Shown piece by piece: positions 2,911 through 49,088 of a stretch of 49,612 nucleotides of DNA. The notes beneath the pieces were generated by a model that was not told where the DNA came from, searched no databases, and saw nothing but the letters and a program-made list of their open reading frames with translations. This DNA comes from Planctomycetaceae bacterium. Its GTDB lineage: Bacteria > Planctomycetota > Planctomycetia > Pirellulales > Thermoguttaceae. Positions within the stretch are counted from its first letter, which is position 1, and the number at the start of each line of letters is the position of its first letter. Both the position numbers and the translations under genes were made by a program. The stretch lies in the NCBI GenBank assembly GCA_031268995.1, contig JAIRWK010000064.1, positions 1 through 49,612 on the forward strand. Direction: 5' to 3'.

Positions 2911-2959
2911 TACGTTGTATGATTTCTACAATTTTTAATTTTGTTCTTCATTTTTGTGA

Positions 2960-3062
2960 TATACTCAAGTTACTTTAAAATTCATGGAGCTGGACACGCA
3001 AGCATAACAACGTGAAGCGGTTGTTCAAGGGCGAAGCCTATCGCCCTACCGGCTACGGAATA
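2960..3062 (+). mobile_element. family-A ~104-bp MITE-like element, full copy ('+' means it reads TATACTGAAGC...TTTTAAAATTCCTGAAGCTG...CAACAACGTGAAGCGGTTGTTCAAGGGCGAAGCC...GGCTACGGTATA)
   Basis: Direct alignment to the other copies. Termini tatactcaag / ctacggaata. Confidence 0.85.
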
Positions 3063-3088
3063 ACAAACCATTATTAAATAATAAAAAA

Positions 3089-4279
3089 ATGAAAAAAATA
3101 AAATATGTAAACGTTGTGATGTTGTTTTTGATTTCAGTGTTTACTTTGAATTTAATTGAGTGTCTTGCTGAAGAAACGGTAAAGTTAAATACGGATCACA
3201 AGATAGTTATACCTGATGAACCAAAACATAAAAATATTGATGCTATTGTAAAACGTGTTAATTTTTGTGTTGATTATTTAGCCGCACAAGATATAAACGG
3301 ATTGAGATTTTATCCCCTTTTTGAAAAAGAGAATAAATCAAAACTAATTATTAGCGGAAACCTACAATATGCCAACAAAAAATTGGAAGCGATGTACGTG
3401 TTTATTTTGCCGGTTGACACAGAATCGGAAGATGTTGTGTGTAGTGGATTGGTTCACATCTTTTTGTCCGATGGTGTTGTTGGTTCGTACACCGAATTCG
3501 GTCCCAAAGATGATAGTCTTTTTGTGCATTCGGGAGTTGGCTTTTATGAAAATGGAAGATTTGCTGATATGTATTGTTCTGACGATGATTTTGAGAACAA
3601 TAAATACTTGCTCTGGGATGAAAAGGGAACACTAAAAAGTAAGGTGTCTGATGTGAAAATTGGCGCGACATTCTCAAATGAATCATTGGCAAGATTTGAT
3701 AAAAATAAAAAAACAAATTATTTACCCCAAATAAAGCTGCCAAGTAACATCGAGAAATATAAAGAGAAATATAAAGATGTTAAGGGAATACTACAAGGTA
3801 TAGACATTATATTGACGAAACAGCATGAGAATACATATAAATTTATCTACAATATTTGCTATCCAAATTTTTTCAAAAAAACCAAATCGGAATACGACAA
3901 AGTTAATTTCGAGATATTACTTGGTTTAGACGGCATTGAAGAATTTTTTGTTGAGCAGGATACTCATCATAAAGGTTTATACAATTCCTACCATATAAAA
4001 ATTTCAAAGAATCAGATATCACGTTTAATTGTAGGTAATATGAAAGGACCCAGTAATCCATTCAGTAAATTGACACCAGCGCGGATAGACGGTTCAGGAG
4101 TGGAGGTTATGTTTCATTCGACAGGTTATCCGGCAACCTATAAAACAATAGTCAAGAATCGTCTTTTTGGTCGTCAAATAGAGTGGAACGATAAAGGTGA
4201 AGTTGTGTCGGATATTGAACTAGATATTCCAAAAGAATGGAAAGACGCGCCGAAAAAAATTGAATCGGAATCAAAATAA
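3089..4279 (+). CDS. secreted MORN-variant (YwqK-like) repeat protein
   Basis: Signal peptide MKKIKYVNVVMLFLISVFTLNLIECLA. Repeated G-x-Y...NG...W-x-x-x-G motifs (e.g. GYPATYKTIVKNRLFGRQIEWNDKGEVV). C-terminal 'PKEWKDAPKKI' echoes 'PKDWKEAPKEI' at the start of ORF 1-1644. Confidence 0.6.
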   Translation: MKKIKYVNVVMLFLISVFTLNLIECLAEETVKLNTDHKIVIPDEPKHKNIDAIVKRVNFCVDYLAAQDINGLRFYPLFEKENKSKLIISGNLQYANKKLEAMYVFILPVDTESEDVVCSGLVHIFLSDGVVGSYTEFGPKDDSLFVHSGVGFYENGRFADMYCSDDDFENNKYLLWDEKGTLKSKVSDVKIGATFSNESLARFDKNKKTNYLPQIKLPSNIEKYKEKYKDVKGILQGIDIILTKQHENTYKFIYNICYPNFFKKTKSEYDKVNFEILLGLDGIEEFFVEQDTHHKGLYNSYHIKISKNQISRLIVGNMKGPSNPFSKLTPARIDGSGVEVMFHSTGYPATYKTIVKNRLFGRQIEWNDKGEVVSDIELDIPKEWKDAPKKIESESK

Positions 4280-4290
4280 GGAAATTTCTG

Positions 4291-4393
4291 TATGCCCAAG
4301 CTATTTTAAAATTCCCGAAGCTGTACACGCAAGCGTAGCATTGCGAAGCGATTGTTCAAGTGTGAAGCCTATCGTTCTATTGGCTACGGTATA
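4291..4393 (+). mobile_element. family-A element, full but diverged copy
   Basis: tatgcccaagctattttaaaattcccgaagctg...ggctacggtata. Confidence 0.8.
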
Positions 4394-4658
4394 AATCACT
4401 TTTGGTTGTGCCAGTTTCGGCATAGCAGGTGATATTTTTTCTTTAATAATTGCCAATAAACAAGATATATGTGAAAGGTTCCCGCGTTGAGGTATTTCAC
4501 GATCAAATCGATAAACTTTTGTTATTTTTCGTATTTTTTCTAATACAAATAATCGTTATAACCGATATACGTGTGCCGCATTCCGTTTTCAGGAATTTTG
4601 GCGGGTTGCGGTGTGTGTGTGTTTCCTAGCCGGTATAATTCAACAGTTAATTTTTATT

Positions 4659-5456
4659 ATGTCATACGGTTTATACATTTCGTCAGAGGGTGCGATGTCT
4701 CAAGATTACAGGCTTGCGACTATTTCGAATAATATTGCCAACATAGAGACACCCGGATTTAAGCGTGAACTTGCGATGCAGATGGCGCGTCATACGGAGT
4801 CGGTTGCTATTGGCGAAGTTGAATTTGGGACGGGGTTGATAACTGACATTGGCGGCGGTGTTCATACTATTGGCACACACACGGAATTTTCGCAAGGTAC
4901 AATCAAACCAACCGAAACCAAATCTGACCTCGCAATACAAGGCGAAGGTTGGTTTAGAGTGAGGGACATGTCCAACGACGAAATTTTCTTGACTCGCGCG
5001 GGTACATTTCAAGTTGATCGCAACGGGGCATTTGTTTCGGAGTGGGGGCGGAGCAGATTTCAATTGCTTGATGTTGACGGTGAACCTGTTGCCCTAGCTG
5101 ATCCGAACTCGAAAAATTGGACGATTACTGACGATAACGTATTGCAAGACGTGGGAGTAGGACGGTTACAGCAAATCTCAATGGTTAAACCGGCAGATTT
5201 GAAGCAATTGGTCAAAACTGGCGAAAATGTTTACCGAATTGACGCTCCCGAAGACCAGCAACTCTACGCCGAAATCGAACCAAACGAACGCCAAAGAATA
5301 AGAGAAGGTCATCTCGAAATGTCAAACACAAATCCCTCAACAGAAATGATCGAAATGATCGTCGCCTCGCGCGCCGTCGAAACAAACGTAAAAATGATCC
5401 AAGCACAAGACGAAGCAACCGGAAACCTAATTTCACGAGTACTACGAATCGCCTAA
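4659..5456 (+). CDS. flgF: flagellar basal-body rod protein FlgF
   Basis: N-terminus MSYGLYISSEGAMSQDYRLATISNNIANIETPGFKR and C-terminus GHLEMSNTNPSTEMIEMIVASRAVETNVKMIQ are the conserved rod-protein termini. ATG at 4659 is preferred over the GTG at 4611. Confidence 0.85.
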   Translation: MSYGLYISSEGAMSQDYRLATISNNIANIETPGFKRELAMQMARHTESVAIGEVEFGTGLITDIGGGVHTIGTHTEFSQGTIKPTETKSDLAIQGEGWFRVRDMSNDEIFLTRAGTFQVDRNGAFVSEWGRSRFQLLDVDGEPVALADPNSKNWTITDDNVLQDVGVGRLQQISMVKPADLKQLVKTGENVYRIDAPEDQQLYAEIEPNERQRIREGHLEMSNTNPSTEMIEMIVASRAVETNVKMIQAQDEATGNLISRVLRIA

Positions 5457-7629: not shown

Positions 7630-7636
7630 AATCGGT

Positions 7637-7740
7637 TATACCGAAGCCGGTATGGGCGGTAGGCTTCGCCCTCGAACAACCGCTTCACATTGTTGCGCTT
7701 GCGTGTTCAGCTTCAGGAATTTTAAAACAGCTCGAGTATA
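7637..7740 (-). mobile_element. family-A element, full copy
   Basis: tataccgaagccggtatgggcggtaggcttcgccctcgaacaaccgcttcacattgttgcgcttgcgtgttcagcttcaggaattttaaaacagctcgagtata. Confidence 0.9.
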
Positions 7741-7796
7741 TTCAATAACCAATCCTATCACCTGTACCGACTGCGGTATAACTTTTTTATTAGAAA

Positions 7797-8494: not shown

Positions 8495-8552
8495 AAAAAC
8501 ACCTCCCCCCTTCCCTTGTCCCTTTCGTCCTTTTTGTCCTTTTTGTCCCTAA
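8495..8552. repeat. phased GTCC(C)-T-tract block (family F, GTCC subtype)
   Basis: ccttgtccctttcgtcctttttgtcctttttgtccct: GTCC words at ~9-10-nt spacing. Similar blocks at 13355-13440, 23945-24005, 27356-27400 and 31320-31345. Confidence 0.7.
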
Positions 8553-8554
8553 AC

Positions 8555-8657
8555 TATGCTGAAGCTACTTTAAAATTCCTGAAGCTGAACACGCAAGCGC
8601 AACAACGTGAAGCGGTTGTTCAAGGGCGAAGCCTATCGCCCTACCAGCTTCGGTATG
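8555..8657 (+). mobile_element. family-A element, full copy
   Basis: tatgctgaagctactttaaaattcctgaagctgaacacgcaagcgcaacaacgtgaagcgg...cagcttcggtat. Confidence 0.9.
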
Positions 8658-10380: not shown

Positions 10381-10544
10381 TCAATATGCATACCATAAAC
10401 CGGTATAAAACAAAAAATAAACTCGTAAATTAGTGCAGTTTTCAGAACTTCCCTCAAGTGAGTTGTTACAAATATTGTAAACATTCACAATAATATTAAC
10501 AGTGAACGGCTACACGCCAATAAATCATTTGTTGGACAACTAAT

Positions 10545-10649
10545 TATACCGAAGCCGGTATGGGCGGTAGGCTTCGCCCTTGAACAACCGCTTCACGTTG
10601 TTGCGCTTCCGTAATCAGCTTTACTGAATTTTAAAATAGCTTGGGCATA
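10545..10649 (-). mobile_element. family-A element, full copy
   Basis: tataccgaagccggtatgggcggtaggcttcgcccttgaacaaccgcttcacgttgttgcgcttccgtaatcagc...gcttgggcata. Confidence 0.9.
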
Positions 10650-12981: not shown

Positions 12982-13242
12982 TGCCAAAGCTGTTGCATGA
13001 AATGTAACAGTTCACGAAAAAATTTTGGGGGGGCATGAGGGACACTAAGGTAGTGTATTCAAAATGCGAATTTTGAGCGTCCTAGCTTTCGGTACGACGG
13101 AATCGAGGATTTCAAAACGGCCCTGGCACGCCGTAGCAAATATGCGCCTTTAGTAGCAATCCGATCCGGCGGTTGCGCTTCGCTACACCGCCGGTTATGC
13201 ACATCACGCCCCATGCGGGGCTAAGAGAAATGTTTTGTACAA

Positions 13243-13345
13243 TATACTGAAGCTGTTTTAAAATTCCTGAAGCTGGACACGCAAGCGTAACAACGTGAAG
13301 CGGTTGTTCAAGGGCGAAGCCTATCGCCTTACCGGCTACGGTATA
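13243..13345 (+). mobile_element. family-A element, full copy
   Basis: tatactgaagctgttttaaaattcctgaagctggacacgcaagcgtaacaacgtgaagcgg...ccggctacggtata. Confidence 0.9.
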
Positions 13346-13440
13346 AATATCAGAGACACTAGGGACACAAGAGACGCAAAGGACATTGAGGACAAAATAA
13401 ATTGGGGCTGTGTTTTGTCCTTTTTGTCCTTTTTGTCCCT

Positions 13441-13754
13441 CATATCTCTGCTGTTCTTCTGTGTGTTTTTTGTTTTTCTTTTATATTTTTTTTGACGCTT
13501 TTTTTAGGCAGGTTTGGCAATCTTGGAATTCTTTGGACTTTACGATGGCGGCTCCTGATTTTAAGCGGTTTACTACATCATGCCAAAATTCACTTAAAAA
13601 TGTTGCGTGGAATTTTTTTGATCTGGCTGAAATAAATTCGTCTTGAATGTGTTTGAATAATTTTGCCAAACTTAATTTTATCGCCTCCGATACCGAATAC
13701 ACAACCGCCTCGCCACAAATAACCAATACACCCACCCCTAACACAACACCAAAC
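13441..13754 (-). repeat. direct repeat DR-b: displaced copy of the GTPase gene 3' end plus ~35 nt downstream
   Basis: Aligns base for base with 14421-14729 (offset ~975-980, a few substitutions, one small indel). Confidence 0.9.
13481..13744 (-). pseudogene. orphan 3' fragment of the GTPase gene (duplicate of its last ~83 codons)
   Basis: 87-aa ORF ...GVLVICGEAVVYSVSEAIKLSLAKLFKHIQDEFISARSKKFHATFLSEFWHDVVNRLKSGAAIVKSKEFQDCQTCLKKASKKI differs at 3 positions from the C-terminus of ORF 14456-16414. Confidence 0.8.
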
Positions 13755-13779
13755 TAATATTTTCACGATTTGTAAGTTT

Positions 13780-13986
13780 TTAGAAGTTCTCTTTATATTC
13801 CTTCATTGCTAAGTTACTCAGTTCTTTTACAGACAGATCGTCGAATAAATTCTTTTGCCATTCCGTATAATCGAATGGCTCTCGAATAATCAGACTTATA
13901 AAGCGTTCTGCTTCTACTCTGCCTAAATTATTTATCAATACCTTCATCCCTTCATTCCGTAAAGCCATTTCCGCATACATAATCAT
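13780..13986 (-). CDS. small protein translationally coupled to the PIN gene (putative antitoxin/partner)
   Basis: 68 aa. Its ATG overlaps the PIN stop (ATGA at 13983-13986). No family recognised. Confidence 0.55.
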   Translation of the reverse strand: MIMYAEMALRNEGMKVLINNLGRVEAERFISLIIREPFDYTEWQKNLFDDLSVKELSNLAMKEYKENF

Positions 13987-14423
13987 TCCTCCAATTCATT
14001 CATAAAAGTTAAAGGGTTTATTATTTTTATATCATTTAATTTTAAATTGAATAATTGTTTGTCCGTTGTTATGAAATAATCAGAATTTGTGTAAACACTA
14101 CATGCAATATGCAACGCATCTTTTGTTCTTATATTTTTAATTTTGAGATTTTCCGCATATTCAATAATTCGAGCATTTTCAACACAACAAATTTTTGCAA
14201 CACTTTTCCAATCATATACTACATTACGCCTATCATCAAATTTATTTTGATTATTTTCATATTCCAAAATATAAGACCAAACTAATTCATACTCATCATT
14301 TAATATACCCTGTTGTATAAATAATTTTGCTTCCGTTTCAAGTCTTATTTTTAACTGATTTTGATCATCAAACGGTCGATTAAATGTACAAATATCTAAA
14401 TAAAGTCTCAATTTTTTCTTCAT
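13983..14423 (-). CDS. PIN-domain protein (VapC-like ribonuclease toxin candidate)
   Basis: Start taken at MKKKLRLYLDICTFNRPFDD (ATG complement at 14421-14423). Acidic residues at the N-terminus (LDIC), 'DALHIA' and 'TTD' motifs fit a PIN fold. The longer ORF-track start (14561) reads through the GTPase 3' end. Confidence 0.65.
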   Translation of the reverse strand: MKKKLRLYLDICTFNRPFDDQNQLKIRLETEAKLFIQQGILNDEYELVWSYILEYENNQNKFDDRRNVVYDWKSVAKICCVENARIIEYAENLKIKNIRTKDALHIACSVYTNSDYFITTDKQLFNLKLNDIKIINPLTFMNELEE

Positions 14424-14729
14424 ATCAGTATATTTTTGTGTTTTTTGTTTTTCTCTTATATTTTTTTTGACGCTTTTTTTAGGCAGGTTTGGCAATCTTG
14501 GAATTCTTTGGACTTTGCGATGGCGGATCCTGATTTTAAGCGGTTTACTACATCGTGCCAAAATTCACTTAAAAATGTTGCGTGAAATTTTTTTGATCTG
14601 GCTGAAATAAAATCGTCTTGAATGTGTTTGAATAATTTTGCCAAACTTAATTTTATCGCCTCCGATACCGAATACACAACCGCCTCGCCACAAATAACCA
14701 ATACACCCGCCGCCAACACGACACCAAAC
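14421..14729 (-). repeat. direct repeat DR-a (functional 3' end of the GTPase gene plus spacer)
   Basis: Partner of 13441-13754. Confidence 0.9.
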
Positions 14730-16414
14730 CATTGCCCCGTAATTTTTGAACCAATAATAAGACCGCCAACAATAAATAAAACCGTAAACACCGGTCGCAC
14801 CAACGTTACCACCAAATCCAACAACTTAATCAATCCCACCCAAACCAAATTTTTCGCCGCCCATGTTGTTAAATTTTGCCTCAACGCATTGTCAAAATTG
14901 ACCTCCACCGGATCCAACTCACTAAGCACAACCTTTGCCCGCGCCAAAATCTCAACACGCCTACCGCCACTAACTAAACTCAACATCTCACGCCTCAACA
15001 CCAAATTGTCCGTCTCCGCAAGACGCTCAATATAACCAAAAATCGTCTCAATAAAACCAACAACAACACCCTCCTCACTCTCCCTCAAATATCGTAACAA
15101 ATTATCTTGACCATAACCCGTATTGCCGACACGTGAAAATAATTTTTGCACAATAACTCCCCACAACTTGCTAAACGGATAAACTAACTTGCCGCCAAGT
15201 ACACGATAAACATCATTTATTCTACGCAACCAAACCGCACGCTTTGCCTCATTCCACCACGCCCACATCCCGCCGGCAAGCACCGAAATGGGCATCGCCG
15301 GTAACTCCATCTCCAACTTGTCATCAATACCCTCAATCGCCGCCAACGCCGCCCCAAATTGATTCGACGCAACCTCCACCCGCCGCAAAAAAGACGGTAA
15401 ACCATTCGACTCGTCAATAATCACTCGAATAGCACCAATAAGCGTTTGAGATTTGATCCGGTCAAAATGTAACTCCGTAAATATCCGACGCAAATCCACC
15501 ATCGCCAATACAGATTGCGGGAGTTGCTCTTGAACGAATGTTTCGTGTTGTTGCGATTGCTTGTTCAGATTCAAAGTAGATTTAGTATCATTGATCTCTT
15601 CAGTACCCTTCCCGTCTTGCGGCAATTGATAAAACGGCAACCGTAATTCCGCTGCCTTGCCCCCGTCAAACGGCGCAGCAAGCACAGCAATCGGAACACA
15701 ACCAGTTTCATCACAAAATTGCTTCAACCAAATCGTAATATGCTCAACATCACGCTCAATATCAACCATATTAAAAATCACAATAACAGGTTTTGCCGCC
15801 TCCGCAGCTTCGCGGAAAAAACGGCGAACCGCCGCATCGTTGTATTTTTGACTTGTAAGCACGGCAATTATCACATCCGCCGCATTGCGCACTCCACGCG
15901 CCCGCACCCAATTCAACTCGTTGTCCGAATCAATATCCGGCGTGTCAAAAATCAAAAGCCGCTCCTCAAGACGATTGTCAACCTTCCAAAAAAGTTGATG
16001 TTCACGGCAAGATTCAAGAGGTTGCTCCGACCGCGACCACTCAACAAGATTAAAATGACAAAAATTACGCCGCAAAATATCCAAAGAATTCGGAATCGAA
16101 CCCGACACAACACAAACAGGATGCTTCGTACCCGATGCCCGATGGTCAACTCCACTGCAATAATTGCCGACAAGATGATTAAATATTACAGACTTGCCCG
16201 TATTGGTACCGCCCATCACAGAAATAATTAAATAAGCACGATCACCAACTTGCGGTAATAACTTGCACGAAAGCAAATCATACCAATCCTCACCCTCCGC
16301 CAACGAAACACCACACGCACCAACTACCCGAATAAGTTGACCAACCACACGATCAATCTCAATCGCTAATTCCGAAAGCTCCCCAAATAAACCCACTCTA
16401 TCAATCAAATCCAT
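14456..16414 (-). CDS. membrane-anchored P-loop GTPase (dynamin/Era-like G domain, C-terminal TM hairpin)
   Basis: G1 GGTNTGKS, G3 DTPD, G4-like NMVD. C-terminal hydrophobic helices (LVWVGLIKLLDLVVTLV, FTVLFIVGGLIIG, VVLAAGVLVICGEAVV). Contains a repeat-derived linker (see 15495-15589). Confidence 0.7.
   Translation of the reverse strand: MDLIDRVGLFGELSELAIEIDRVVGQLIRVVGACGVSLAEGEDWYDLLSCKLLPQVGDRAYLIISVMGGTNTGKSVIFNHLVGNYCSGVDHRASGTKHPVCVVSGSIPNSLDILRRNFCHFNLVEWSRSEQPLESCREHQLFWKVDNRLEERLLIFDTPDIDSDNELNWVRARGVRNAADVIIAVLTSQKYNDAAVRRFFREAAEAAKPVIVIFNMVDIERDVEHITIWLKQFCDETGCVPIAVLAAPFDGGKAAELRLPFYQLPQDGKGTEEINDTKSTLNLNKQSQQHETFVQEQLPQSVLAMVDLRRIFTELHFDRIKSQTLIGAIRVIIDESNGLPSFLRRVEVASNQFGAALAAIEGIDDKLEMELPAMPISVLAGGMWAWWNEAKRAVWLRRINDVYRVLGGKLVYPFSKLWGVIVQKLFSRVGNTGYGQDNLLRYLRESEEGVVVGFIETIFGYIERLAETDNLVLRREMLSLVSGGRRVEILARAKVVLSELDPVEVNFDNALRQNLTTWAAKNLVWVGLIKLLDLVVTLVRPVFTVLFIVGGLIIGSKITGQWFGVVLAAGVLVICGEAVVYSVSEAIKLSLAKLFKHIQDDFISARSKKFHATFLSEFWHDVVNRLKSGSAIAKSKEFQDCQTCLKKASKKI
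15495..15589 (-). mobile_element. diverged family-A element embedded in frame in the GTPase CDS
   Basis: Core cttgaacgaatgtttcgtgttgttgcgattgcttgttcagattcaaa matches the family-A consensus at 36 of 47 hand-aligned positions. Translated as LNLNKQSQQHETFVQEQ, parallel to LKLNTQAQQREAVVQGR read from intergenic copies. Confidence 0.65.
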
Positions 16415-16440
16415 ATCCGTACTAAATTATTTTCTGTATA

Positions 16441-16706
16441 TTAACCACAGAGAACACAGAGTTCTCAGTGGGAAGTTTTAAACACGAAAGTTTATTAAAA
16501 GGAAATTTACAAAAATACTATTTGCCAAAAAAAATTATTTCAAATTCGGTCGATTTTCAGTCAACATAAATCAACCGAATTCGAATAAAATTAATTTTTA
16601 GAAACTCCCAAAAGTTTTTAAAAATCCCCTTCCCCTTTCGTGTTTTTTTCGTATTTTTCGTGTCTTTCGTGTTTAAAAACTCCCCCCCTGTGAACTCTGT
16701 GGTTAA
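16441..16706. repeat. family-G composite repeat bounded by inverted AACCACAGAG termini
   Basis: ttaaccacagagaacacagag at the left and ctgtgaactctgtggttaa at the right. The interior carries the 'aaatactatttgccaaaaaa...ttcaaattcggtcgatttt' module and a phased ttcgtg T-tract block. Confidence 0.7.
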
Positions 16707-16717
16707 TAAACGCGGTA

Positions 16718-17383
16718 TTAAAAGAAATTAGCGCGGGCTTGTTCTTTGGTTTCTTTTGACACGGTGAAAGGAATACGAGTTGTGTAACCTGCACGCGCTG
16801 CAACTATCATTTTTGTAGGCCACGCAAAAATATCCTGATTCCAACGCATAACCGCGTCATTATAAACTTCGCGTGCTGCTGTGATTTCGCGTTGCAAGTA
16901 GCTGTTTTGTTGCATTGCATCCGCGATTGCCGCGTGTGCTTGCAAATCAGGATAACGCTCAACAGATATTTTCAAACCACTCGCAATCGCCTCCAATTGC
17001 CCCGCAACCTCTGATCGATTACTATCATTTACACTTGTCCCGCTTCGCAACGCCGCTACACTCTTCATCACATCCTTGTCCAACTCCACCGCCTTCGCAA
17101 CAAGTCCCGCAACATTTTGCAATATCACTACCCGCTGCTCAAGATAATTGTCAATCTGCGAAGCATCGTGTTGAATCTTCTGTTGCAACTGACGCAAATA
17201 ATTCTGCGCACCAATTTTCATAAACAAAAAAATCACTCCGGGTACAATAAAAAGAACCCAGAGAATAACCTCAAATAACACAGAACCAAATCCCACTTGA
17301 ACTGGTAACTGCTTCTCAATCACATTAATGTCTCTCCCCACAACATTGACAACGGGTTTCATTTCGTCTAATTCATTCGGCAT
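16718..17383 (-). CDS. lemA: LemA family protein
   Basis: N-terminal TM, then ERYPDLQAHAAIADAMQQNSYLQREITAAREVYNDAVMRWNQDIFAWPTKMIV, the characteristic LemA core. Confidence 0.8.
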   Translation of the reverse strand: MPNELDEMKPVVNVVGRDINVIEKQLPVQVGFGSVLFEVILWVLFIVPGVIFLFMKIGAQNYLRQLQQKIQHDASQIDNYLEQRVVILQNVAGLVAKAVELDKDVMKSVAALRSGTSVNDSNRSEVAGQLEAIASGLKISVERYPDLQAHAAIADAMQQNSYLQREITAAREVYNDAVMRWNQDIFAWPTKMIVAARAGYTTRIPFTVSKETKEQARANFF

Positions 17384-17431
17384 TTTTTTAATTTTTAGGT
17401 TAAGGGGTTAAATTTTATACTGGTTTCGGTA

Positions 17432-19288
17432 TTACACTTCTTGTTCTGAGATTTCGGCGAATGATTCTTTTTGCAATGGGATATATTCTATCCAATTGAC
17501 CGGAACCTGATAGATACCTGATTTATGACTGACTGTAACATAGTCAATCCGCTCTACAGCCTTGTATCCGTAAGCCGTAACGGTAACATTGTCAATGCCG
17601 CCGTTTTTCCCGTGAAGTTTCGTTTTTAAAATAGTTTTTGTTGCGAATTCAGGATGCGTGAAAAGGGACGCGGGCATCTTATTGACCGCGCATTCATGAG
17701 CAAAACAGCTAAAACGCGATTCATAAACATCCTTGTAAATAAATTCATGCGGTTTGTGTTGCTGGTACAACGGGATAGCCAGCAAAGGAGCAAAGGCAAA
17801 ATAAACCGCTCGGAAATATTCATTATTGTAATCATTAAAATTATTTCTAATAGTGTCAATATCATAATGCGTGTAGTTTTTCGGATTACCGGTAATATCT
17901 CTTGCTTGTAAATGTTCGGGTTTATGTTTTGTTTTTTCGGCTTGCAGATGTTCGGGGACAATTATGTTTATCATTTTGTCTTTTTGGAACACAAAATCAT
18001 CGCCCCACGAATATGTTGTGTCTTTGAGAAGTTTCAACATTTCGCGTTGTGCAATCGGCGTAAACAATAACCGAAACTCAACCTCGTTATCTCTATCCGA
18101 CGCACCAAATAAAGCATCAAAATCGTTGCCCATTGATGTAAAATTTTCACCTCTTGAGATTGCAGACCGCATTTGAGCGTTTTGTTTTTTGATTTCTTTG
18201 CCAACCCTTTTTTGCAACTGTTTCTCCGATAATTCCTCCGCATCCGTCGCCATACGCAAAAACGATAAATTCGGTGCCGACTCATTGCCGTAAACCAAAT
18301 AACAATCCTCGTAATATTGAGGACAAGGTTTTGTAACGTTTGCGGACAAGGTTTCCGAGCAAGTTCTTGTTTGCGATCTGCCTTTCGAATCTCTGTAACT
18401 TTCCGTCCAATGAATTGTCAAATAACCCGTGTAACTTTTCACACCAAGCAAATGATTCAACATCTTAAAAAAACAAAACGGATTACCGTTGATCTCGCCG
18501 CTCTGAATAAACAAAGTTGAAATATCTTTGTTGCTGTTGTCTTGCAAGCCGTATTTTCTGTTCAAATAATCGAAGCGTTTGATGTCAAAATAATCGTCGA
18601 GTTGTATCAGCGGGTAAGTTTCTTCCATCAACCGGCTTGACATTCGTTGTTCAAAAAGACTATTCAACGGAATCATTTGTTGCCAAGCCTGCTCTATAAT
18701 CGGTTGCAACCGCTTATCCAAATTGGCGATATTTGCCTTCAACTCTTTAATTTTCGGGGCAATCTTTTTGACTATCACAAAAATCGACCAACCCGCAAAA
18801 GAAACCGCCAAAATAAACACCAATAAAGATATTTTGTTCAAAACTCCAAAATCCAAATCGTTTTGCGCAATAAATTCATTTGCCCAACCACTCAAAACCA
18901 TTATCGACCCGATAAAACCAAGCACGCACACCACAACTAAAAATATCAATAAAATTTGCCGAAAATACGCTTTACGCAAAGATTTATTTTCAACGTCGAG
19001 TTCGGATTGCAATTTGTGGATAACGCTAACCGTTTTTCGGTTTTCTTCCTCATTTATTCCGCTTTCCGCGACCAATTTCTCAAAAAATCCGCTAACATTT
19101 TTTTGGTGTAATTCCTTGTAGATTTTTTCGTATTCGTCGAGCGGTTGAAATTCGGAGTTATGATTTTCTCGTTTTTTTGACGTATTTTTTGATAGTAACT
19201 CCGAATCGGCAACAAGTTCCTCGATTATTTGCCCGCCGACAATTCTCTGCTCTTCACCATCAACATCGTAATCAATTCCGTTTGTCAT
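17432..19288 (-). CDS. hypothetical two-TM membrane protein upstream of lemA
   Basis: Start moved to MTNGIDYD (19288), because the first 27 codons of the tracked ORF are read from a family-A repeat. Coiled-coil-like N-terminus, two TM helices, ~420-aa C-terminal domain of unknown family. Confidence 0.6.
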   Translation of the reverse strand: MTNGIDYDVDGEEQRIVGGQIIEELVADSELLSKNTSKKRENHNSEFQPLDEYEKIYKELHQKNVSGFFEKLVAESGINEEENRKTVSVIHKLQSELDVENKSLRKAYFRQILLIFLVVVCVLGFIGSIMVLSGWANEFIAQNDLDFGVLNKISLLVFILAVSFAGWSIFVIVKKIAPKIKELKANIANLDKRLQPIIEQAWQQMIPLNSLFEQRMSSRLMEETYPLIQLDDYFDIKRFDYLNRKYGLQDNSNKDISTLFIQSGEINGNPFCFFKMLNHLLGVKSYTGYLTIHWTESYRDSKGRSQTRTCSETLSANVTKPCPQYYEDCYLVYGNESAPNLSFLRMATDAEELSEKQLQKRVGKEIKKQNAQMRSAISRGENFTSMGNDFDALFGASDRDNEVEFRLLFTPIAQREMLKLLKDTTYSWGDDFVFQKDKMINIIVPEHLQAEKTKHKPEHLQARDITGNPKNYTHYDIDTIRNNFNDYNNEYFRAVYFAFAPLLAIPLYQQHKPHEFIYKDVYESRFSCFAHECAVNKMPASLFTHPEFATKTILKTKLHGKNGGIDNVTVTAYGYKAVERIDYVTVSHKSGIYQVPVNWIEYIPLQKESFAEISEQEV

Positions 19289-19317
19289 TATATCTATTAA
19301 AGGAAGTTTTATCTTTT

Positions 19318-19421
19318 TATACCGAAGCCGGTATGGGCGGTAGGCTTCGCCCATGAACAACCGCTTCACGTTGTTGCGTTTGCTTGTTCAGCCTCAGGAA
19401 TTTCAAAACAGCCTGAGCGTA
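19318..19421 (-). mobile_element. family-A element, full copy
   Basis: tataccgaagccggtatgggcggtaggcttcgcccatgaacaaccgcttcacg...gcctgagcgta. Confidence 0.9.
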
Positions 19422-19424
19422 ATG

Positions 19425-19760
19425 GACAAAAGGGGATTTTTAACACGAAAGGTACAAAACAAAAGCGGGAATGGGACTTCCGTTCCTGAGAACGGAGCTT
19501 TCATTCCCGAAAATGGAGCTTTCATTCCTGAGAATGGAGCTTTCATTCCCGAGAACGGAGCTTTCATTCCCGAAAATGGAGCTTTCATTCCCGATGATTT
19601 TTCCTCCAGACTCTAAAATTTTCTCCACGCACCAAAAATTCCCCTTTTCGTATTTTTAGTCCTTTTTGTGCCTTTGGTGTTCAAAATCCCTCTTTTCGTA
19701 TCTTTCGTCTTTTTCGTACCTTTAGTGTAAAAAATTTCCCCCTTCGTGATTAAACGAAAT
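19425..19760 (+). repeat. family-H dispersed repeat (carries the expanded 21-bp array and T-tract blocks)
   Basis: Reverse-complement relationship to 47395-47617 (shared cgaaaggtacaaaacaaaagc, ggagctttcattccc, cagactctaaa). Confidence 0.65.
19473..19598. repeat. 21-bp tandem repeat, 6 units (GGAGCTTTCATTCCCGAAAAT)
   Basis: Units start at 19473 (degenerate), 19494, 19515, 19536, 19557 and 19578. Open in several frames on both strands, which indicates a non-coding repeat. Confidence 0.9.
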
Positions 19761-21819: not shown

Positions 21820-21916
21820 TTTGAAGAGCAAAATGTCGAATTGATTCGAATTATTCTTAACTCATGCTGTGTATTCGGAAACTTCCAAAAACTGGTTTTT
21901 TTACGGAAGTTTTTTT

Positions 21917-22018
21917 TATGCCATAGCCGGTAAGGCGATAGGCTTCGCCCTTGAACAACCGCTTCACGTTGTTACGCTTGCGTATCCAGCTTCGGGAATT
22001 TTAAACAGCTTGAGTGTA
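21917..22018 (-). mobile_element. family-A element, full copy
   Basis: tatgccatagccggtaaggcgataggcttcgcccttgaacaaccgcttcacgttgttacgc...gcttgagtgta. Confidence 0.9.
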
Positions 22019-22105: not shown

Positions 22106-22222
22106 TATACCGAAGCTGGTATACCGTAGCCGGTAAGGCGATAGGCTTCGCCCTTGAACAACCGCTTCACGTTGTTACGCTTGCGTGTCCAGCTTCTGGA
22201 ATTTTAAAACAGCTTGAGTATA
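22106..22222 (-). mobile_element. family-A element, full copy with a duplicated left terminus
   Basis: tataccgaagctggtata + ccgtagccggtaaggcgataggcttcgcccttgaac...cagcttgagtata. Confidence 0.9.
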
Positions 22223-22378
22223 TATTTTTATTTTTGACACAATGAATATAATTCTGTTGAAAAATCCCAAAAAACATCCTAGATCTACAATGACGCGATT
22301 TGAGCAACCGTGAATGGTTGTTTTCAGATTGCCCTTCCCTTTAGCCCTAAAATCCTAAGCCTTAACCCTATTCAAAAA

Positions 22379-23914: not shown

Positions 23915-24049
23915 CTACGTCCTTTGCATTCACCCAATCGGAATAAGATTTCACATGTCCCTACTGTCCTTTATGCCTTTCACGTCCTTTGTGTCCCTTT
24001 TGAATAATTACCCTAAATAGTATAAAAAATAGATAGAAAAATTTTAATT

Positions 24050-27082: not shown

Positions 27083-27202
27083 ATATACCGGCTACGGAGT
27101 ATACCGAAGCCGGTATGGGCGGTAGGCTTCGCCCATGAACAACCGCTTCGCGATGCTACGCTTGCGTGTCCAGCTTCGGGAATTTCAAAACAGCTTGGGT
27201 AT
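27083..27202 (-). mobile_element. family-A element, full copy with a duplicated left terminus
   Basis: tataccggctacggagtata + ccgaagccggtatgggcggtaggcttcgcccatgaac...cagcttgggtata. Confidence 0.9.
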
Positions 27203-27314
27203 ATCTCTTGCATCCCAGATCGATCCAAACGATTCGGCGGTTGCACAACGCGCCGCAATTGGGTAAGATAATACCACAAACATAATTTTCGACAAGTATC
27301 CCATGCAAACATCT

Positions 27315-27355: not shown

Positions 27356-27604
27356 ACCGTTTACTTTGTCCCTTATGTCCTTTGTGTCCTTCATATCCTT
27401 CAAAAATATCACAAAAAAAAATAAAAACTATTTGCGCAATCAAGAGTGCAATACGCTTGAGAAAAATCGGGTATATTGTAACTCTTGGCGATTACAATAA
27501 AATATTGCCCTTTGATGAAACGCCCATTGTTGTATGGGGCGTTTATGCAGCGACTGGTATTGGCGAAGCGTACCAAACCAAATTTAACCAAAATTTAAAC
27601 TAAA

Positions 27605-30258: not shown

Positions 30259-30285
30259 ATGCTTAGACATCGCCTGAAATAAAAT

Positions 30286-30388
30286 TATACCGTAGCCGGT
30301 AAGGCGATAGGCTTCGTCCTTGAGTAACCGCTTCACGTTGTTGCGCTACCGTAATCAGCTTCGTGAATTTTAAAACAGCTTGAGTATA
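30286..30388 (-). mobile_element. family-A element, full copy
   Basis: tataccgtagccggtaaggcgataggcttcgtccttgagtaaccgcttcacgttgttgcgc...cagcttgagtata. Confidence 0.9.
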
Positions 30389-30389
30389 T

Positions 30390-31310: not shown

Positions 31311-31349
31311 CCGGTAAGGCATTGTCCCTCATATCCTTTTTACCCCTTA

Positions 31350-31463
31350 TATACTCATCGCACTATGAAATTCAGTTTTTATTTTTTTGGCAGGATTTTA
31401 TTATATCCTGACGATCCTGTTATCCTGTCTTAAAAAAATTAATTTCATAGTAGCTACGGTATA
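31350..31463 (+). mobile_element. family-C ~115-125-bp palindromic element
   Basis: tatactcatcgcactatgaaattcagttttt...caggat...atcctg...aaaaaattaatttcatagtagctacggtata. The termini resemble the family-A TIR. Confidence 0.75.
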
Positions 31464-31487: not shown

Positions 31488-31590
31488 TATACCGCAGCCG
31501 GTAAGGCAATAGGCTTCGCCCATGAACAACCGCTTCACGTTGTTACGCTTGCGTGTCCAGCTTCGGGAATTTTAAAACAGCTTCAGTATA
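31488..31590 (-). mobile_element. family-A element, full copy, abutting the dinG-fragment ATG
   Basis: tataccgcagccggtaaggcaataggcttcgcccatgaacaaccgcttcacg...cagcttcagtata|atg. Confidence 0.9.
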
Positions 31591-32289
31591 ATGTCTGATT
31601 CGTTTACATTTTTTAAGACGCAAATAGGGATGTCTGTAATTGACACGTTGCAGCTTGGGAGTCCGTTTAATTATTTTGAGCAAGTTACGCTTGTGATTGT
31701 GCGTGATGCGCCGTTACCTGATTCGCGTGAGGATATTTTGCGTTCTTATTATGTTGCGGCGATTCGGAAATATCTTGCGGAGACGGGCGGCGGTGCGTTT
31801 GTGCTTTTTACTTCGTATAGTTTGCTCAAACGCACGGCATCTGATTTGACATCGTGGCTTGTTGAACGTGAAATGCCGATATTGGTTCAAGGCGATGGTG
31901 TTCCGCGAAACGAAATGATTCGCCAATTCAAAAATTCAAACCGTGCTGTTTTATTTGGAACGGATAGTTTTTGGCAAGGTGTGGATGTACCTGGTGATTC
32001 GCTCAGAAATGTAATCATTACGAGGCTTCCTTTTCTAGTGCCAAATCAACCTGTTGTTGAAGCTAAAATTGAATCTATAAAAAATCGGGGCGGCAATCCC
32101 TTCAACGAATACCAATTGCCAACCGCAATCCTAAAATTTAAACAAGGCTTTGGCAGATTAGTTAGGACAAAATCGGATCGCGGACTGGTAGTTGTACTTG
32201 ACCCTAGAATACATGCAAAATCTTACGGCAAAAATTTCATAAAAGCCCTGCCGCAATGCAAAACCAGATTCGATCAAACAACAGACTAA
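31591..32289 (+). pseudogene. dinG: DinG/Rad3-family helicase, C-terminal (helicase_C_2) fragment only
   Basis: LGSPFNYFEQV...VLFTSYSLL...VLFGTDSFWQGVDVPGDSLRNVIITRLPF...KQGFGRLVRTKSDRGLVVVLDPRI covers only motor domain 2. The frame opens at 31576 inside a family-A repeat, and the ATG abuts the repeat end. Confidence 0.6.
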
Positions 32290-42987: not shown

Positions 42988-43090
42988 TATACCGAAGCTA
43001 CTTTAAAATTTCTGAAGCTGAACACGCAAGCGTAACAACGTGAAGCGGTTGTTCAAGGGCGAAGCCTGTCGCCTTACCGGCTACGGTATA
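42988..43090 (+). mobile_element. family-A element, full copy (preceded by a solo terminus at 42957-42975)
   Basis: tataccgaagctactttaaaatttctgaagctgaacacgcaagcgtaacaacgtgaagcgg...ccggctacggtata. Confidence 0.9.
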
Positions 43091-43328
43091 ACTCATGTTA
43101 CGCATCGGTGATGAGTAACCGATAATCCTGTCCCGCTAGAGACAATATGTTGGTAGAAAATAATGTAAAAAATATTCCGCGCCCCGTATGGGACGCAATG
43201 TGATTACAATTTAACCGTTTGAAATGTCCTCACATTCCGTCCCTAACGGGACGCGAACAATGTTTTACCTTTTTCTATCAATCAACTGAATAATCACCAT
43301 CATTTTCGTATCGTGCGTAACATGAGTT
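43090..43328 (+). mobile_element. family-D ~240-bp element with 15-nt TIRs (AACTCATGTTACGCA) and three GTCCC-loop-GGGAC hairpins
   Basis: Begins aactcatgttacgcatcgg and ends cgtgcgtaacatgagtt. Reverse complement of 47715-47958 over its whole length, with scattered substitutions. Confidence 0.85.
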
Positions 43329-44436: not shown

Positions 44437-44537
44437 CTGTAGCGGAAGCGTCCCGCTTCCGATTGCGGCAACGGGACACTTCCGATTGCGGCAACGGGAC
44501 GCTTCCGATTGCGGTAGCGGGGACGCTACCGTTACAG
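44437..44537. repeat. family-E hairpin, expanded version (internal ~22-nt units repeated)
   Basis: ctgtagcggaagcgtcccgcttccgattgcggcaacgggacacttccgattgcggcaacgggacgcttccgattgcggtagcggggacgctaccgttacag. Confidence 0.8.
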
Positions 44538-46828: not shown

Positions 46829-46931
46829 TATACCGTAGCCGGTAGGGCGATAGGCTTCGCCCTTGAACAACCGCTTCACGTTGTTGCGCTTGCGTGTTCA
46901 GCTTCAGGAATTTTAAAGTAGCTTCAGTATA
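46829..46931 (-). mobile_element. family-A element, full copy
   Basis: tataccgtagccggtagggcgataggcttcgcccttgaacaaccgcttcacg...gtagcttcagtata. Confidence 0.9.
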
Positions 46932-47224
46932 ATAACCGTACCTAACAAACGCCTACGCTGGCATCTCTTTTATAGTTTTTTTGGAATTAACGGACACGAC
47001 CCGCAACCGGCAAGAACAAAAACCAAGAGAGTTGCACTCCCATCGAAAAGTCCCAGCCAAACAATTAACGTCAGTACAACTGACCCGTAACTCTTAATGG
47101 CAATAAGATAGATTATTTTGAGAATATTGCAAGAGATTCACCAGAAATTTTTCAACAAAGACAAAATCACACGTGGAATTTACCGATTTCTACGCTGAAA
47201 TCGCGGTTTTTGCGCGGAATTTGT

Positions 47225-47328
47225 TATACCGAAGCCGGTATGGGCGATAGGCTTCGCCCCTGAACAACCGCTTCACGTTGTTGCGCTTCCGTGTTCAGCT
47301 TCAGGAATTTCAAAGTGGCTTTGGTATA
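47225..47328 (-). mobile_element. family-A element, full copy
   Basis: tataccgaagccggtatgggcgataggcttcgcccctgaacaaccgcttcacg...gtggctttggtata. Confidence 0.9.
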
Positions 47329-47619: not shown

Positions 47620-47674
47620 CTGTAACGGAAGCGTCCCGCTTCCGATTGCGACAGCGGAGACGTTGCCGTTACGG
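47620..47674 (-). repeat. family-E hairpin (reverse complement of 43349-43403)
   Basis: ctgtaacggaagcgtcccgcttccgattgcgacagcggagacgttgccgttacgg. Confidence 0.8.
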
Positions 47675-48985: not shown

Positions 48986-49088
48986 TACGCTCAAGCTGTT
49001 TTAAAATTCCTGAATCTGGACACGCAAGCGCAACAACGTGAAGCGGTTGTTCAGGGGCAAAGCCTATCGCCTTATCGGCTACGGTATA
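48986..49088 (+). mobile_element. family-A element, full copy
   Basis: tacgctcaagctgttttaaaattcctgaatctggacacgcaagcgcaacaacgtgaagcgg...tcggctacggtata. Confidence 0.85.

Follow-up and report, generated by a model that had tools for sequence, protein, structure and literature searches.

The window, which is the whole stretch of DNA analysed here, is an entire metagenome contig of 49,612 nt. Thirty-two of its ORFs were scanned with Pfam and are ordinary chromosomal genes. No integrase, transposase or prophage gene was found among them, the two genes of the insert included, and the window gave no Rfam match. The locus lies on the minus strand. A GTPase gene (14456-16414) is followed by a 32-nt spacer, a PIN-domain gene (13983-14423), a small ORF (13780-13986), a junction (13755-13779), and a second copy of the GTPase 3' end, here called DR-b; the first copy, DR-a, is the end of the GTPase gene itself. 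An earlier sequence-only reading had described direct repeats bracketing a PIN cassette, this gene order, and a unit of about 975 nt; the repeat alignment and the ORF list confirmed all three.

The GTPase gene is intact and encodes 652 aa (Pfam MMR_HSR1, 2.7e-07), a P-loop GTPase with a C-terminal membrane region. The final 274 nt of the gene lie inside DR-a. The search for homologues found 765 proteins, mostly from Planctomycetaceae MAGs, which cover 97-100% of the length, including the C-terminus. The nearest relative is 69% identical, and none is above this value.

The PIN-domain gene encodes a VapC-like putative toxin nuclease of 146 aa, as assigned by Pfam, homologues, and AF2/Foldseek analysis. 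Its Pfam PIN score of 23.1 bits is slightly below the cutoff of 23.6. The acidic residues D10, E29, D102, and D121 are invariant across 37 diverse homologues. The AF2 model has a pLDDT of 72.5, and the best Foldseek matches are VapC/PIN structures (probability 0.98-1.0, TM ~0.55). The protein is absent from NCBIfam and PADLOC. It is also absent from phage records, and its plasmid matches are rare and distant; thus no vehicle was found in either. Close homologues start at a TTG codon behind GGAGG. The window has host-like sequence in place of this GGAGG, and with it a new ATG four codons upstream.

The partner gene (13780-13986, minus strand) encodes 68 aa when read from its first ATG. This ORF is present as first described, where it was said to be ATGA-coupled to the PIN gene. 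Homologues of the partner begin with MYAEM..., and a GGAGG lies 8 nt ahead of the second ATG; therefore, translation probably starts at 13980 (66 aa), which makes the ATGA overlap uncertain. A total of 1063 homologues were found, and among the 120 listed every named one is 'hypothetical'. No match was obtained in Pfam, NCBIfam, PADLOC, or the PDB (sequence and profile). The AF2 model consists of four helices (pLDDT 71), Foldseek found no fold match, and no antitoxin fold was recognised. This small helical protein of an unnamed family is presumed to be the antitoxin, and the two genes would most likely form a toxin-antitoxin pair.

The inserted segment (13755-14436, minus strand) is bounded by both repeat copies and is 682 nt long, made up of a 13-nt leader, the PIN gene, the partner gene, and a 25-nt tail. 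Its GC content is 27.6%, compared with 42.2 +/- 4.3% for the host genes. The PIN protein is 75-88% identical to proteins of Treponema, Prevotellaceae, Campylobacteraceae, Chitinispirillales, and Lachnospiraceae, whereas the GTPase finds only relatives at or below the identity given above. On these two grounds, composition and homology, the cassette is foreign to the host. The inverted-repeat list and Pfam showed no attC-like palindrome, terminal repeats, or recombinase in the 682 nt. Gaps of 14 nt and 29 nt separate the repeat copies from the coding sequences. The 25-nt filler between the partner stop codon and DR-b (13755-13779, minus strand) is unique. It has no match in the window or in any fetched locus at up to 5 mismatches, and is absent from the closest cassettes. 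At the left junction, GAAG might be conjectured as a microhomology, since it is common to a 9-mer unit of the host and the canonical leader of the cassette. A promoter-like site, TTGGCA-17-TAAAAT, is present within DR-a (14533-14561, minus strand), as a consensus match of 10/12 positions, and points towards the PIN gene; its second copy is at 13558-13586 in DR-b. Promoter and terminator scans found such sites to be no commoner in the region than in shuffled sequence.

The two copies of the gene end

Positions 13462-13754 and 14437-14729 form a direct repeat of 293 nt, which is ungapped, 96.6% identical, and spaced at 975 nt. There is no third copy in the 49.6-kb window, where the repeat is a two-copy family. 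It comprises the terminal 274 nt of the GTPase gene and a further 19 nt. The upstream copy, DR-a (14437-14729, minus strand), is the functional GTPase 3' end with 19 nt behind its stop codon; the downstream copy, DR-b (13462-13754, minus strand), is redundant. Base-by-base comparison over 297 nt showed 12 mismatches and a longest identical run of 96 nt. The first 25 nt of the gene-proximal edge account for four of the mismatches, and this diverged edge extends in DR-a to ~14733.

DR-b contains an orphan ORF of 87 aa (13481-13744), which is annotated by both JGI and NCBI (87/84 aa) and clusters with the GTPase. At 90% identity the GTPase clusters only with calls from its own contig, this fragment included, and no conspecific genome is present in the databases. 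Exact-protein look-ups with the GTPase and the PIN protein likewise returned no second contig from the databases searched. Only 3 amino-acid differences had been counted between the two copies at first. This number holds for the core; the diverged edge adds another 2 (A->G, A->V), and at the 5' edge of DR-b an in-frame TAG stands where DR-a encodes Trp.

A common 'catatc' end point had also been claimed for the two copies. The corresponding GATATGA is found in both, but is reached only over a non-homologous patch of 10 nt in DR-a and 15 nt in DR-b. The end point is nevertheless likely to be real, as a 9-nt intergenic array of the host opens with the unit GATATGA(A/G)G. If so, the duplication would be about 315 nt, and DR-a may continue beyond its 10-nt patch to ~14415. 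The original downstream flank of the GTPase gene (13406-13461, minus strand) consists of the 15-nt patch and then the 9-nt periodic array (GATATGAGG GACAAAAAG ...). Arrays of this type also occur at five other intergenic sites in the window.

One copy of a host interspersed intergenic repeat of ~105 nt lies nearby, outside the insertion (13239-13347, plus strand). Its sequence differs from the direct repeats, and its involvement in the duplication was rejected. This repeat was not found in three GTPase relatives (L001-L003), which serve only as distant 'empty' states. In these relatives the GTPase end is single-copy and the cassette is absent, at only 53-69% protein identity and with no downstream synteny. 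DR-a and DR-b are 97% identical to each other, but each is only ~75% identical to the single-copy ends of these three. We infer the pre-insertion state at the GTPase locus from relatives at 69% identity or less, and found no strain-level empty site in the databases. By outgroup polarisation, DR-b has 4 derived changes and DR-a has 2, a distribution over both copies that would be expected for divergence in place.

The cassette family across genomes

About 30 other cassettes, from other bacterial phyla, share 77-87% DNA identity with the window cassette. This homology is limited to the two ORFs (window 14436 to ~13785). The outside flanks are unrelated, and no conserved end motif was found outside the ORFs among the related cassettes. 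GTPase sequence was not found beside any other cassette in 160 loci. Because the homology ends at the ORFs and no GTPase sequence occurs elsewhere, the repeat is host sequence and not cargo. The idea that the module carried its own copy of the gene end is therefore not supported. The PIN gene is directly followed by the partner in 79 of 80 genome loci. The order, which had been called reversed, is so with respect to VapBC, but it is the normal one in this family. The family is abundant, with thousands of copies and many independent insertions. Most of the closest named relatives come from termite-gut MAGs.

A membrane GTPase gene end had also been suggested as the target of the cassette. Family members sit behind unrelated genes (ffh, methyltransferase, C25 peptidase) or behind terminators; judging from these sequence contexts, GTPase genes are not the target. 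The family was scanned for direct repeats of at least 25 nt hugging the cassette, and 122 loci were evaluable. Tight flanking repeats were found at 23 of the 122 loci, about a fifth. They flanked 48 of 4530 shifted virtual cassettes (1%; Fisher p = 5e-20) and 12 of 227 other genes of 350-1000 nt at the same loci (5%; p = 1e-4). Two-copy repeats account for 23 of the 29 positive loci; they are 25-293 nt long and differ in sequence. At six to eight of these 23 loci, the 3' end of the upstream co-oriented gene lies inside the repeat. The copied gene ends include ffh at L099 (195 nt, 93%), a methyltransferase gene at L072, L054, and L080, a C25 peptidase gene at L070, and those at L163 and L152. 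The remaining 6 of the 29 carry multi-copy array repeats, so that the enrichment of the family mixes these with unique target duplications. Repeat-separated cassette arrays hold the family members L118, L151, L045, L010, and L159. Of these, L118 has a textbook attC as its repeat (TCCTAAC...GTTAGGA), with an imperfect hairpin of 95 nt (z = -5.5).

Five Poribacteria genomes share an orthologous insertion, in which the downstream repeat copy is eroded or deleted. This decay marks the downstream copy as a remnant, and the same status is supported for DR-b. The repeat-cassette-repeat arrangement also occurs on megabase contigs: L072 lies on a 1.08-Mb contig, and orthologous cassettes lie on contigs of 4.4 Mb and 6.5 Mb.

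Origin of the duplication

The locus is probably the product of an insertion with long target duplication, in which a foreign PIN/partner cassette was placed behind the GTPase gene by illegitimate joining. That the footprint is one of an insertion which spared the gene through its duplicated 3' end had been proposed before, and this part of the proposal is supported. The promoter-poor two-gene cassette would have entered directly behind the planctomycete GTPase gene, with duplication of ~300 nt of target, namely the last 274 nt of the gene and the first bases downstream. The incoming DNA would have had its left end attached behind the target segment, and its right end ahead of it, on a sister duplex or through a replication template switch. 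Each joint would be an illegitimate, microhomology-type joining, and not the work of a site-specific recombinase. The upstream copy would preserve the whole GTPase gene, from which the cassette could be transcribed by read-through, and the downstream copy would decay. If the repeats recombined, the cassette would be lost, and loss of an addiction module would kill the cell. Such killing of deletants would allow the unstable repeat-flanked structure to last long enough to diverge by 3%.

Some observations count against target duplication. Of three informative amino-acid differences, the functional copy has the derived state at two, which would also fit the import of an allele from another strain. 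The 10/15-nt patch inside the repeat end and the cluster of four mismatches at the 5' edge also speak against it, as do the distance to the nearest GTPase relative, the partner's lack of a recognised antitoxin fold, and the mixed nature of the family-wide enrichment. In a Campbell-type origin, which is the model of the sequence-only reading with no recombinase, a small circle or fragment already carrying the cassette beside a GTPase 3' end from a conspecific strain would have recombined with the chromosome through a RecA crossover to give repeat-cassette-repeat. The arrangement is just what a single crossover would leave. The copies are 3% apart; both carry derived changes, and two of those in the functional copy are non-synonymous, which would suit the joining of two alleles. 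Repeat-flanked units could also excise as circles, and such a cycle has been proposed for restriction-modification units (PMC2853133). However, the problem is only moved back, since the first linkage between a cross-phylum cassette and a planctomycete GTPase end still needs an illegitimate event. None of the other cassettes in the 160 loci carries GTPase sequence, and the databases searched hold no conspecific sequences. Moreover, the differences are not arranged in the two blocks expected from one crossover, though they are too few for a firm test. A Campbell-type origin is thus rather unlikely.

Illegitimate insertion and homologous re-entry might be combined in a broader reading. The PIN/partner pair would then be a minimal recombinase-free mobile element ('naked addiction cassette'). 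It would cross phyla, enter the ends of expressed genes with long target duplications, block repeat-mediated deletion by its own toxicity, exit as a circle with one target copy, and re-enter relatives by homology. In the strongest form of this reading, the PIN nuclease itself would help to make the staggered breaks. A virus-like cycle of excision and re-entry was proposed, but never shown, for restriction-modification units (PMC2853133). The reading as a whole is speculative and quite improbable.

The arrangement might also be an artefact of assembly, with two strain variants, or a free circle and an empty chromosome, threaded into one contig. The window is a whole metagenome contig, and 97% identity between copies is typical of strain variation. 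On the other side, both junctions (repeat end to cassette start; cassette end and 25-nt filler to repeat start) are unique and must exist in reads, and with identical runs of 96 nt or less, ordinary k-mers and read pairs can resolve the repeat. The diverged edge of DR-b, with its stop codon, is peculiar to that copy, and the same architecture is found in many independent assemblies, including megabase-scale contigs. An artefact is accordingly very unlikely. The chance is similarly small for two unrelated events, in which the gene end was first duplicated spontaneously in tandem and the cassette later landed, independently, right at the duplication joint. Tandem duplications of a few hundred bases are common, and the outcome would look identical. 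Nevertheless, the insertion would have to fall precisely at the new joint of an unstable duplication, and the recurrence at independent targets in about one-fifth of the family loci, far over the controls, favours one coupled event.

The least probable origin, with hardly any weight left, is an integron-type or other site-specific insertion at attC-like sites or pre-existing interspersed repeats: family members do occur in repeat-separated arrays, with attC as the L118 repeat, and the compact, almost leaderless cassette resembles integron cassettes, but the window repeat belongs to the coding region of a conserved host gene, present once in relatives, and is neither palindromic nor interspersed, the 25-nt tail behind the partner has no attC, the 32 ORFs screened against Pfam include no integrase, and the interspersed repeats of the window differ in sequence from the direct repeats. 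For the window locus, this origin is already largely refuted.

Comparison with known systems and significance

Insertion with long target duplication, the reading preferred here, was described for restriction-modification units (Nobusato et al. 2000, Gene 259:99; Furuta, Abe & Kobayashi 2010, PMC2853133). It is the nearest precedent in print, and the sequence-only reading had not named it. These show target duplications of 46-423 bp, some of which overlap gene 3' ends, and no mobility genes (PMC2853133; PMC3874152). The window cassette is likewise a small addiction-type unit with deviant GC and no integrase or transposase. Its flanking repeats are local target sequence; across the family such repeats differ in both length and sequence, and some include the 3' end of the neighbouring gene. 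The published definition asks for repeats >30 bp immediately flanking the insert, for an insert <20 kb with no mobility genes in or beside it, and for repeats that belong to the local target and not to the mobile unit (PMC2853133). The window has 293-nt repeats immediately beside a two-gene insert of 682 nt, with no mobility genes, and the repeats are host sequence. The cargo is different: restriction-modification genes in the published class (PMC2853133), and a PIN protein with a small helical protein in the window. The published cases were also defined by a same-species empty site, whereas the present case is based on family-wide recurrence across metagenomes. For restriction-modification systems, insertion has been suggested to be promoted by the DNA-cutting enzyme that the unit encodes, an idea that is not readily applied to the PIN/partner pair. 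The window locus is classed as working like the long-target-duplication class, but is not a member of the published restriction-modification set. A literature search for toxin-antitoxin cassettes with long target duplications returned only the restriction-modification papers and reviews citing them. The footprint was previously described only for restriction-modification genes, and the PIN cassette is new as its cargo.

Islands that restore the 3' ends of tRNA, tmRNA, or protein genes also leave their target intact, with its 3' end on both sides. They bring a tyrosine or serine recombinase of their own, have the replacement end within attP, and use one and the same target in all hosts. In contrast, no recombinase was found for the window cassette, its targets differ at every locus examined, and its relatives lack the target sequence. 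A site-specific island was rejected because no recombinase was found and the target genes vary between hosts. Orphan modules of cdiA/rhs genes similarly place a displaced 3'-end copy downstream of a full gene, with small genes between. In those orphans, divergent toxin tips are paired with cognate immunity genes, and the shared sequence is limited to a short conserved junction. The window copies are 97% identical and without toxin domains, and a self-contained PIN pair lies between them. The orphan-module reading was rejected as well, since the copies are near-identical and homologous to a C-terminus that is conserved throughout the GTPase family. Both analogies had been drawn in the sequence-only reading, and neither survived: the 32 ORFs include no integrase or transposase, and the copies are near-identical, not polymorphic.

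Toxin-antitoxin cassettes are known in chromosomal integrons, such as the Vibrio superintegron (PMC2654758). These too are compact, horizontally spread gene pairs between similar repeats, and the L118 array has a canonical attC. The window differs in that its repeats are a host gene end around a solitary insertion, not an array. The attC consensus (RYYYAAC ... GTTRRRY) is found at the 3' end of the cassette in L118 but not in the window, and neither an integron integrase with attI nor a neighbouring cassette array was found in the 49.6-kb contig. The cassette resembles VapBC in its PIN fold with four conserved acidic residues, its tight two-gene operon with a small partner, and its wide horizontal spread. 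Unlike in VapBC, the toxin gene precedes the partner gene, and the partner lacks any AbrB, RHH, Phd/YefM, or HTH DNA-binding domain and has no detected relative of known structure.

The entry of solitary toxin-antitoxin pairs into chromosomes without mobile-element machinery is poorly understood, and no mechanism for insertion with long target duplication has emerged since the 2000 description for restriction-modification genes. The window locus, together with about one-fifth of the family at unrelated targets, extends this mode of insertion to a PIN toxin cassette. The many independent insertions make the junction rules, the target preferences (gene ends, terminators), and the decay of the repeats open to comparison. 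For genome annotation, short orphan genes beside such cassettes, such as the 84/87-aa 'gene' of the window, can be duplicated gene ends. These results also suggest a general rule: any gene may insert in this way, and only addiction modules survive later repeat-mediated deletion.

Duplicated gene end and its host contig

A PIN gene and a small partner gene follow a GTPase gene on the minus strand, and this cassette is bracketed by direct repeats that duplicate the end of the GTPase gene. The sequence-only reading had described this arrangement; it was borne out by the repeat search, the alignment, and the ORF order, and the description is correct except for small details. The repeats at 14437-14729 (DR-a, upstream copy) and 13462-13754 (DR-b, downstream copy) are the sole long two-copy direct repeat of the region: 293 nt, ungapped, 97% identical, and spaced by 975 nt. 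No third copy occurs within the 49.6-kb window. The minus-strand order is the GTPase gene (14456-16414), a 32-nt spacer, the PIN ORF (13983-14423), the small ORF (13780-13986), a 25-nt junction (13755-13779), and DR-b. Pairwise alignment showed that the homology starts abruptly at '...GTTTGGTG' and ends at '...AAAACACA'. The copies have 12 differences over 297 nt, four of them within the first 25 nt; the longest identical run is 96 nt. The translation of DR-b matches the GTPase C-terminus. The three amino-acid differences counted earlier hold for its core but not overall, since the edge adds two more substitutions and a TAG in place of the Trp of the GTPase gene. The duplicated segment begins within the last predicted membrane helix of the GTPase.

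The window is a complete metagenome contig. The neighbourhood is of an ordinary chromosomal kind (flagellar rod and ring proteins, Obg, PrmC, a chemoreceptor, and DUF1559), with LemA and MAG1210-family protein genes upstream of the GTPase gene; a screen of 32 window ORFs yielded no integrase or transposase. The GTPase has 765 homologues. Nearly all of those with a named source belong to Planctomycetaceae MAGs, and the best is only 69% identical. Its 90% cluster has no members from outside this contig; the gene calls in it include ones of 84 aa and 87 aa at DR-b. PADLOC gave only weak matches to the GTPase (LeoA, 0.0096; a 2TM effector model, 0.015 at residues 556-652). The GTPase gene is the last of a MAG1210-family/LemA/GTPase cluster (14456-19369, minus strand). 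This cluster is lacking in two GTPase relatives (L001 and L003), which have NDK and CstA upstream of the GTPase gene instead.

The window also contains other repeats. An interspersed repeat of ~105 nt occurs in ~22 near-full copies and additional fragments, at a density of about one per intergenic region; the copies lie in either orientation and are 80-98% identical (2959-3063, 4298-4395, 7636-7742, 8555-8656, 10544-10642, 13239-13347, 19316-19412, 21915-22015, 22120-22223, 27100-27204, 30285-30389, 31488-31594, 42988-43091, 46829-46931, 47224-47314, 48990-49088, and others). It ends in a 7-nt inverted terminus (TATACCG...CGGTATA), contains several short hairpins, and does not occur in the GTPase relatives L001-L003. 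With no match in Rfam and hardly any covariation, it looks MITE/REP-like rather than like a structured RNA. The copy at 19316-19412 includes the GTG called as the start of the 645-aa MAG1210-family gene (19369; 'MKRLFMGEAYR...'), and a spurious ORF at 13295-13345 opens with the same pseudo-peptide ('MKRLFKGEAYR'); the true start is probably downstream of the called GTG. Tandem hairpin-forming units occur at 19448-19615 (21-nt period, ~8 copies, GAATGGAGCTTTCATTCCCGA), upstream of the MAG1210/LemA/GTPase operon, and at 44443-44535 and 47626-47672 (23-nt period, CGGAAGCGTCCCGCTTCCGATTG). A giant 2714-aa ORF (33194-41338) encodes a repetitive protein, with internal DNA repeats of ~0.5 kb and ~1.37 kb at 76-94% identity.

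The PIN/partner cassette

The insert between the repeat copies is 682 nt long, with a GC content of 27.6% (PIN, 24.9%) versus 42.2 +/- 4.3% in 24 host genes. It is foreign and consists of two genes and nothing more. The PIN protein has 2879 homologues, the best being 75-88% identical. The top ones come from Treponema, other Spirochaetia, Prevotellaceae, Campylobacteraceae, Chitinispirillales, and Lachnospiraceae, mostly in termite-gut MAGs. The PIN-first order had been read as the reverse of classic VapBC; it is the normal order of this family, since the small partner gene directly follows the PIN gene in 79/80 genome loci. The DNA identity of the window cassette to ~30 other cassettes (77-87%) is confined to 14436 to ~13785; none of these matches its repeats or flanks. 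No common end motif was found outside the two ORFs, and the outer sequences are unrelated between loci. Distant PIN homologues (30-39% identity) on the Planktothrix plasmids NZ_LR882945.1, NZ_LR882951.1, and AP017993.1 (H1, H2, and H8) lie next to, or overlap with, genes whose annotation is type I restriction-modification specificity subunit.

The PIN assignment is based on a near-threshold Pfam match, four acidic residues (D10, E29, D102, and D121) invariant in 37 diverse homologues, and structural neighbours. The AF2 model is moderate (pLDDT 72.5); its closest structures in Foldseek are VapC toxins and other PIN proteins (probability 0.98-1.0, TM ~0.55). The partner protein has 1063 homologues, and every named one among the 120 listed is 'hypothetical'. 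Its core motif, G..L...LG.V.AERFI.L..REPFDYT.W, is strongly conserved. Sequence and profile searches found no match in Pfam, NCBIfam, PADLOC, or PDB, and no structural neighbour was found for its four-helix model (pLDDT 71). The family is uncharacterised; its architecture suggests that the two proteins are most likely a toxin-antitoxin pair.

Recurrence across the family

The family survey covered 160 loci (80 genome and 80 metagenome contigs), searched for direct repeats of at least 25 nt within 300 nt of both cassette ends. Such repeats flank 23/122 PIN cassettes (18.9%), versus 48/4530 segments of equal size placed at other positions of these loci (1.06%; Fisher p = 5e-20) and 12/227 other genes of 350-1000 nt from these loci (5.3%; p = 1e-4). 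The latter control is conservative, because genes adjoining PIN cassettes are often cassettes themselves. These small genes near PIN cassettes (L136, L046, L064, L103, L053, and L159 among others) suggest that repeat-bracketed cassettes may reach beyond the PIN/partner family.

With the window and loci with shorter flanks counted in, 29 loci are positive. The two-copy repeats (23 loci, 25-293 nt) differ in sequence at each locus, and are made of the upstream gene's 3' end, its terminator hairpin, or both. They comprise methyltransferase gene ends (L072, L054, L080), a C25 peptidase gene end (L070), a segment including the stop codon (L152), 35 nt of gene end plus terminator (L163, 89 nt), and terminator-like hairpins (L087, L090, L096, L101, L136, L019). 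At L099, the repeat is 195 nt at 93% identity, 173 nt of which is the end of ffh, the signal recognition particle GTPase gene. This locus (3766-4878) is the second-best example of the window architecture, with a 9-nt deletion in the downstream copy. The inserted pieces have leaders and tails of 0 to ~150 nt, which fits random fragment ends and not site-specific excision. Five Poribacteria genomes share an orthologous insertion. Its downstream copy retains 96%, 93%, or 86% identity in some and is undetectable or deleted in others, which marks it as the decaying one. The earlier proposal of gene-specific targeting with a replacement end was not upheld: cassette homology stops at the ORFs, the flanks are unrelated, and the targets vary by locus.

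Multi-copy repeats (6 loci) are spaced by ~0.9-1 kb within cassette arrays. The L118 repeat includes an integron attC of canonical form (TCCTAAC...GTTAGGA, 95-nt imperfect hairpin, z = -5.5), so the PIN/partner module also moves as an integron cassette in some hosts. In L118 (1226-4196), four ~220-nt repeats at ~900-nt spacing each contain an attC, and the PIN/partner pair is one cassette. Other arrays (L151:441-2183 and L096:1-851) have a ~150-nt repeat of hairpin, terminator, and Bacteroidetes-type promoter motif (TAATTTTG), which flanks PIN cassettes of two subfamilies with 79% and 50% identity to the window PIN.

Origin of the repeats and mode of insertion

The last 85 GTPase residues align with the C-termini of the entire GTPase family, and the relatives L001-L003 have the GTPase end in single copy with no cassette. 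The repeats are, by these comparisons, host sequence. Polarised with L001-L003 as the outgroup, DR-b has four derived differences (three at the edge and A->V) and DR-a has two (E->D and A->S), with another two ambiguous. Either each copy has therefore diverged from a once identical state, or two slightly different alleles were the source. Downstream, the duplication probably ends within the first unit of a host 9-nt intergenic array, GATATGA(A/G)G, and the array behind the GTPase gene is the probable right-hand insertion junction. Close PIN homologues have a canonical TTG start preceded by GGAGG; in DR-a, this first array unit stands in for GGAGG and provides a new ATG for the PIN ORF. The host unit has GAAG in common with the canonical cassette leader, and this might be a junction microhomology. 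Arrays of this period (GGACAAAAA and variants, often opening with GGATATGA(A/G)) lie at 8507-8559, 13406-13458, 19639-19730, 23955-23998, 27357-27400, and 31322-31356, usually adjoining a 105-nt repeat copy; one is the flank that originally lay downstream of the GTPase gene.

Illegitimate insertion coupled to local target duplication is the best-supported account of the window cassette. Campbell-type integration of a circle already bearing a GTPase end fits the geometry and the two-sided divergence of the copies. It leaves unexplained how a cross-phylum cassette first gained a planctomycete gene end, and no related cassette carries one. A duplication followed by an independent insertion at the joint is unparsimonious, since other family loci repeat the pattern. 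The structure is unlikely to be an assembly artefact: each junction is unique, DR-a and DR-b can be told apart at least every 96 nt, and the architecture is also seen in independent assemblies, some of them megabase contigs. An integron or other site-specific origin is largely ruled out here, as the cassette has no attC and the 32 window ORFs screened gave no integrase.

The published match to coupled insertion and duplication is the 'insertion with long target duplication' of restriction-modification units. Their target repeats are variable (46-423 bp) and sometimes overlap a gene 3' end; the insertions have no mobility genes, and their mechanism is unknown (PMC2853133; also PMC3874152). An invasion-amplification-release cycle was proposed for them (PMC2853133). 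Two routes might generate the repeat-insert-repeat structure: the two ends of the incoming DNA could be joined to staggered points on sister duplexes, or a replication template switch could leave the chromosome and re-enter upstream of the exit point. An insertion near a gene end would survive only when that end is duplicated, not deleted, which would account for the gene 3' ends within the repeats. The cassette leader is only 13 nt, so transcription must come from the GTPase operon or from inside the duplicated segment; a promoter-like hexamer pair is present there, though such matches are no commoner than in shuffled sequence.

A 300-nt repeat around 680 nt is a good substrate for RecA-mediated deletion. 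Persistence to 3% divergence would be expected only if cassette loss is penalised, as by an addiction module, and this would account for the footprint at restriction-modification and toxin-antitoxin genes in particular. The window finding is real and more general than the sequence-only reading saw: the PIN/partner pair probably adds a new class of cargo to a mode of gene insertion that is known but unexplained.
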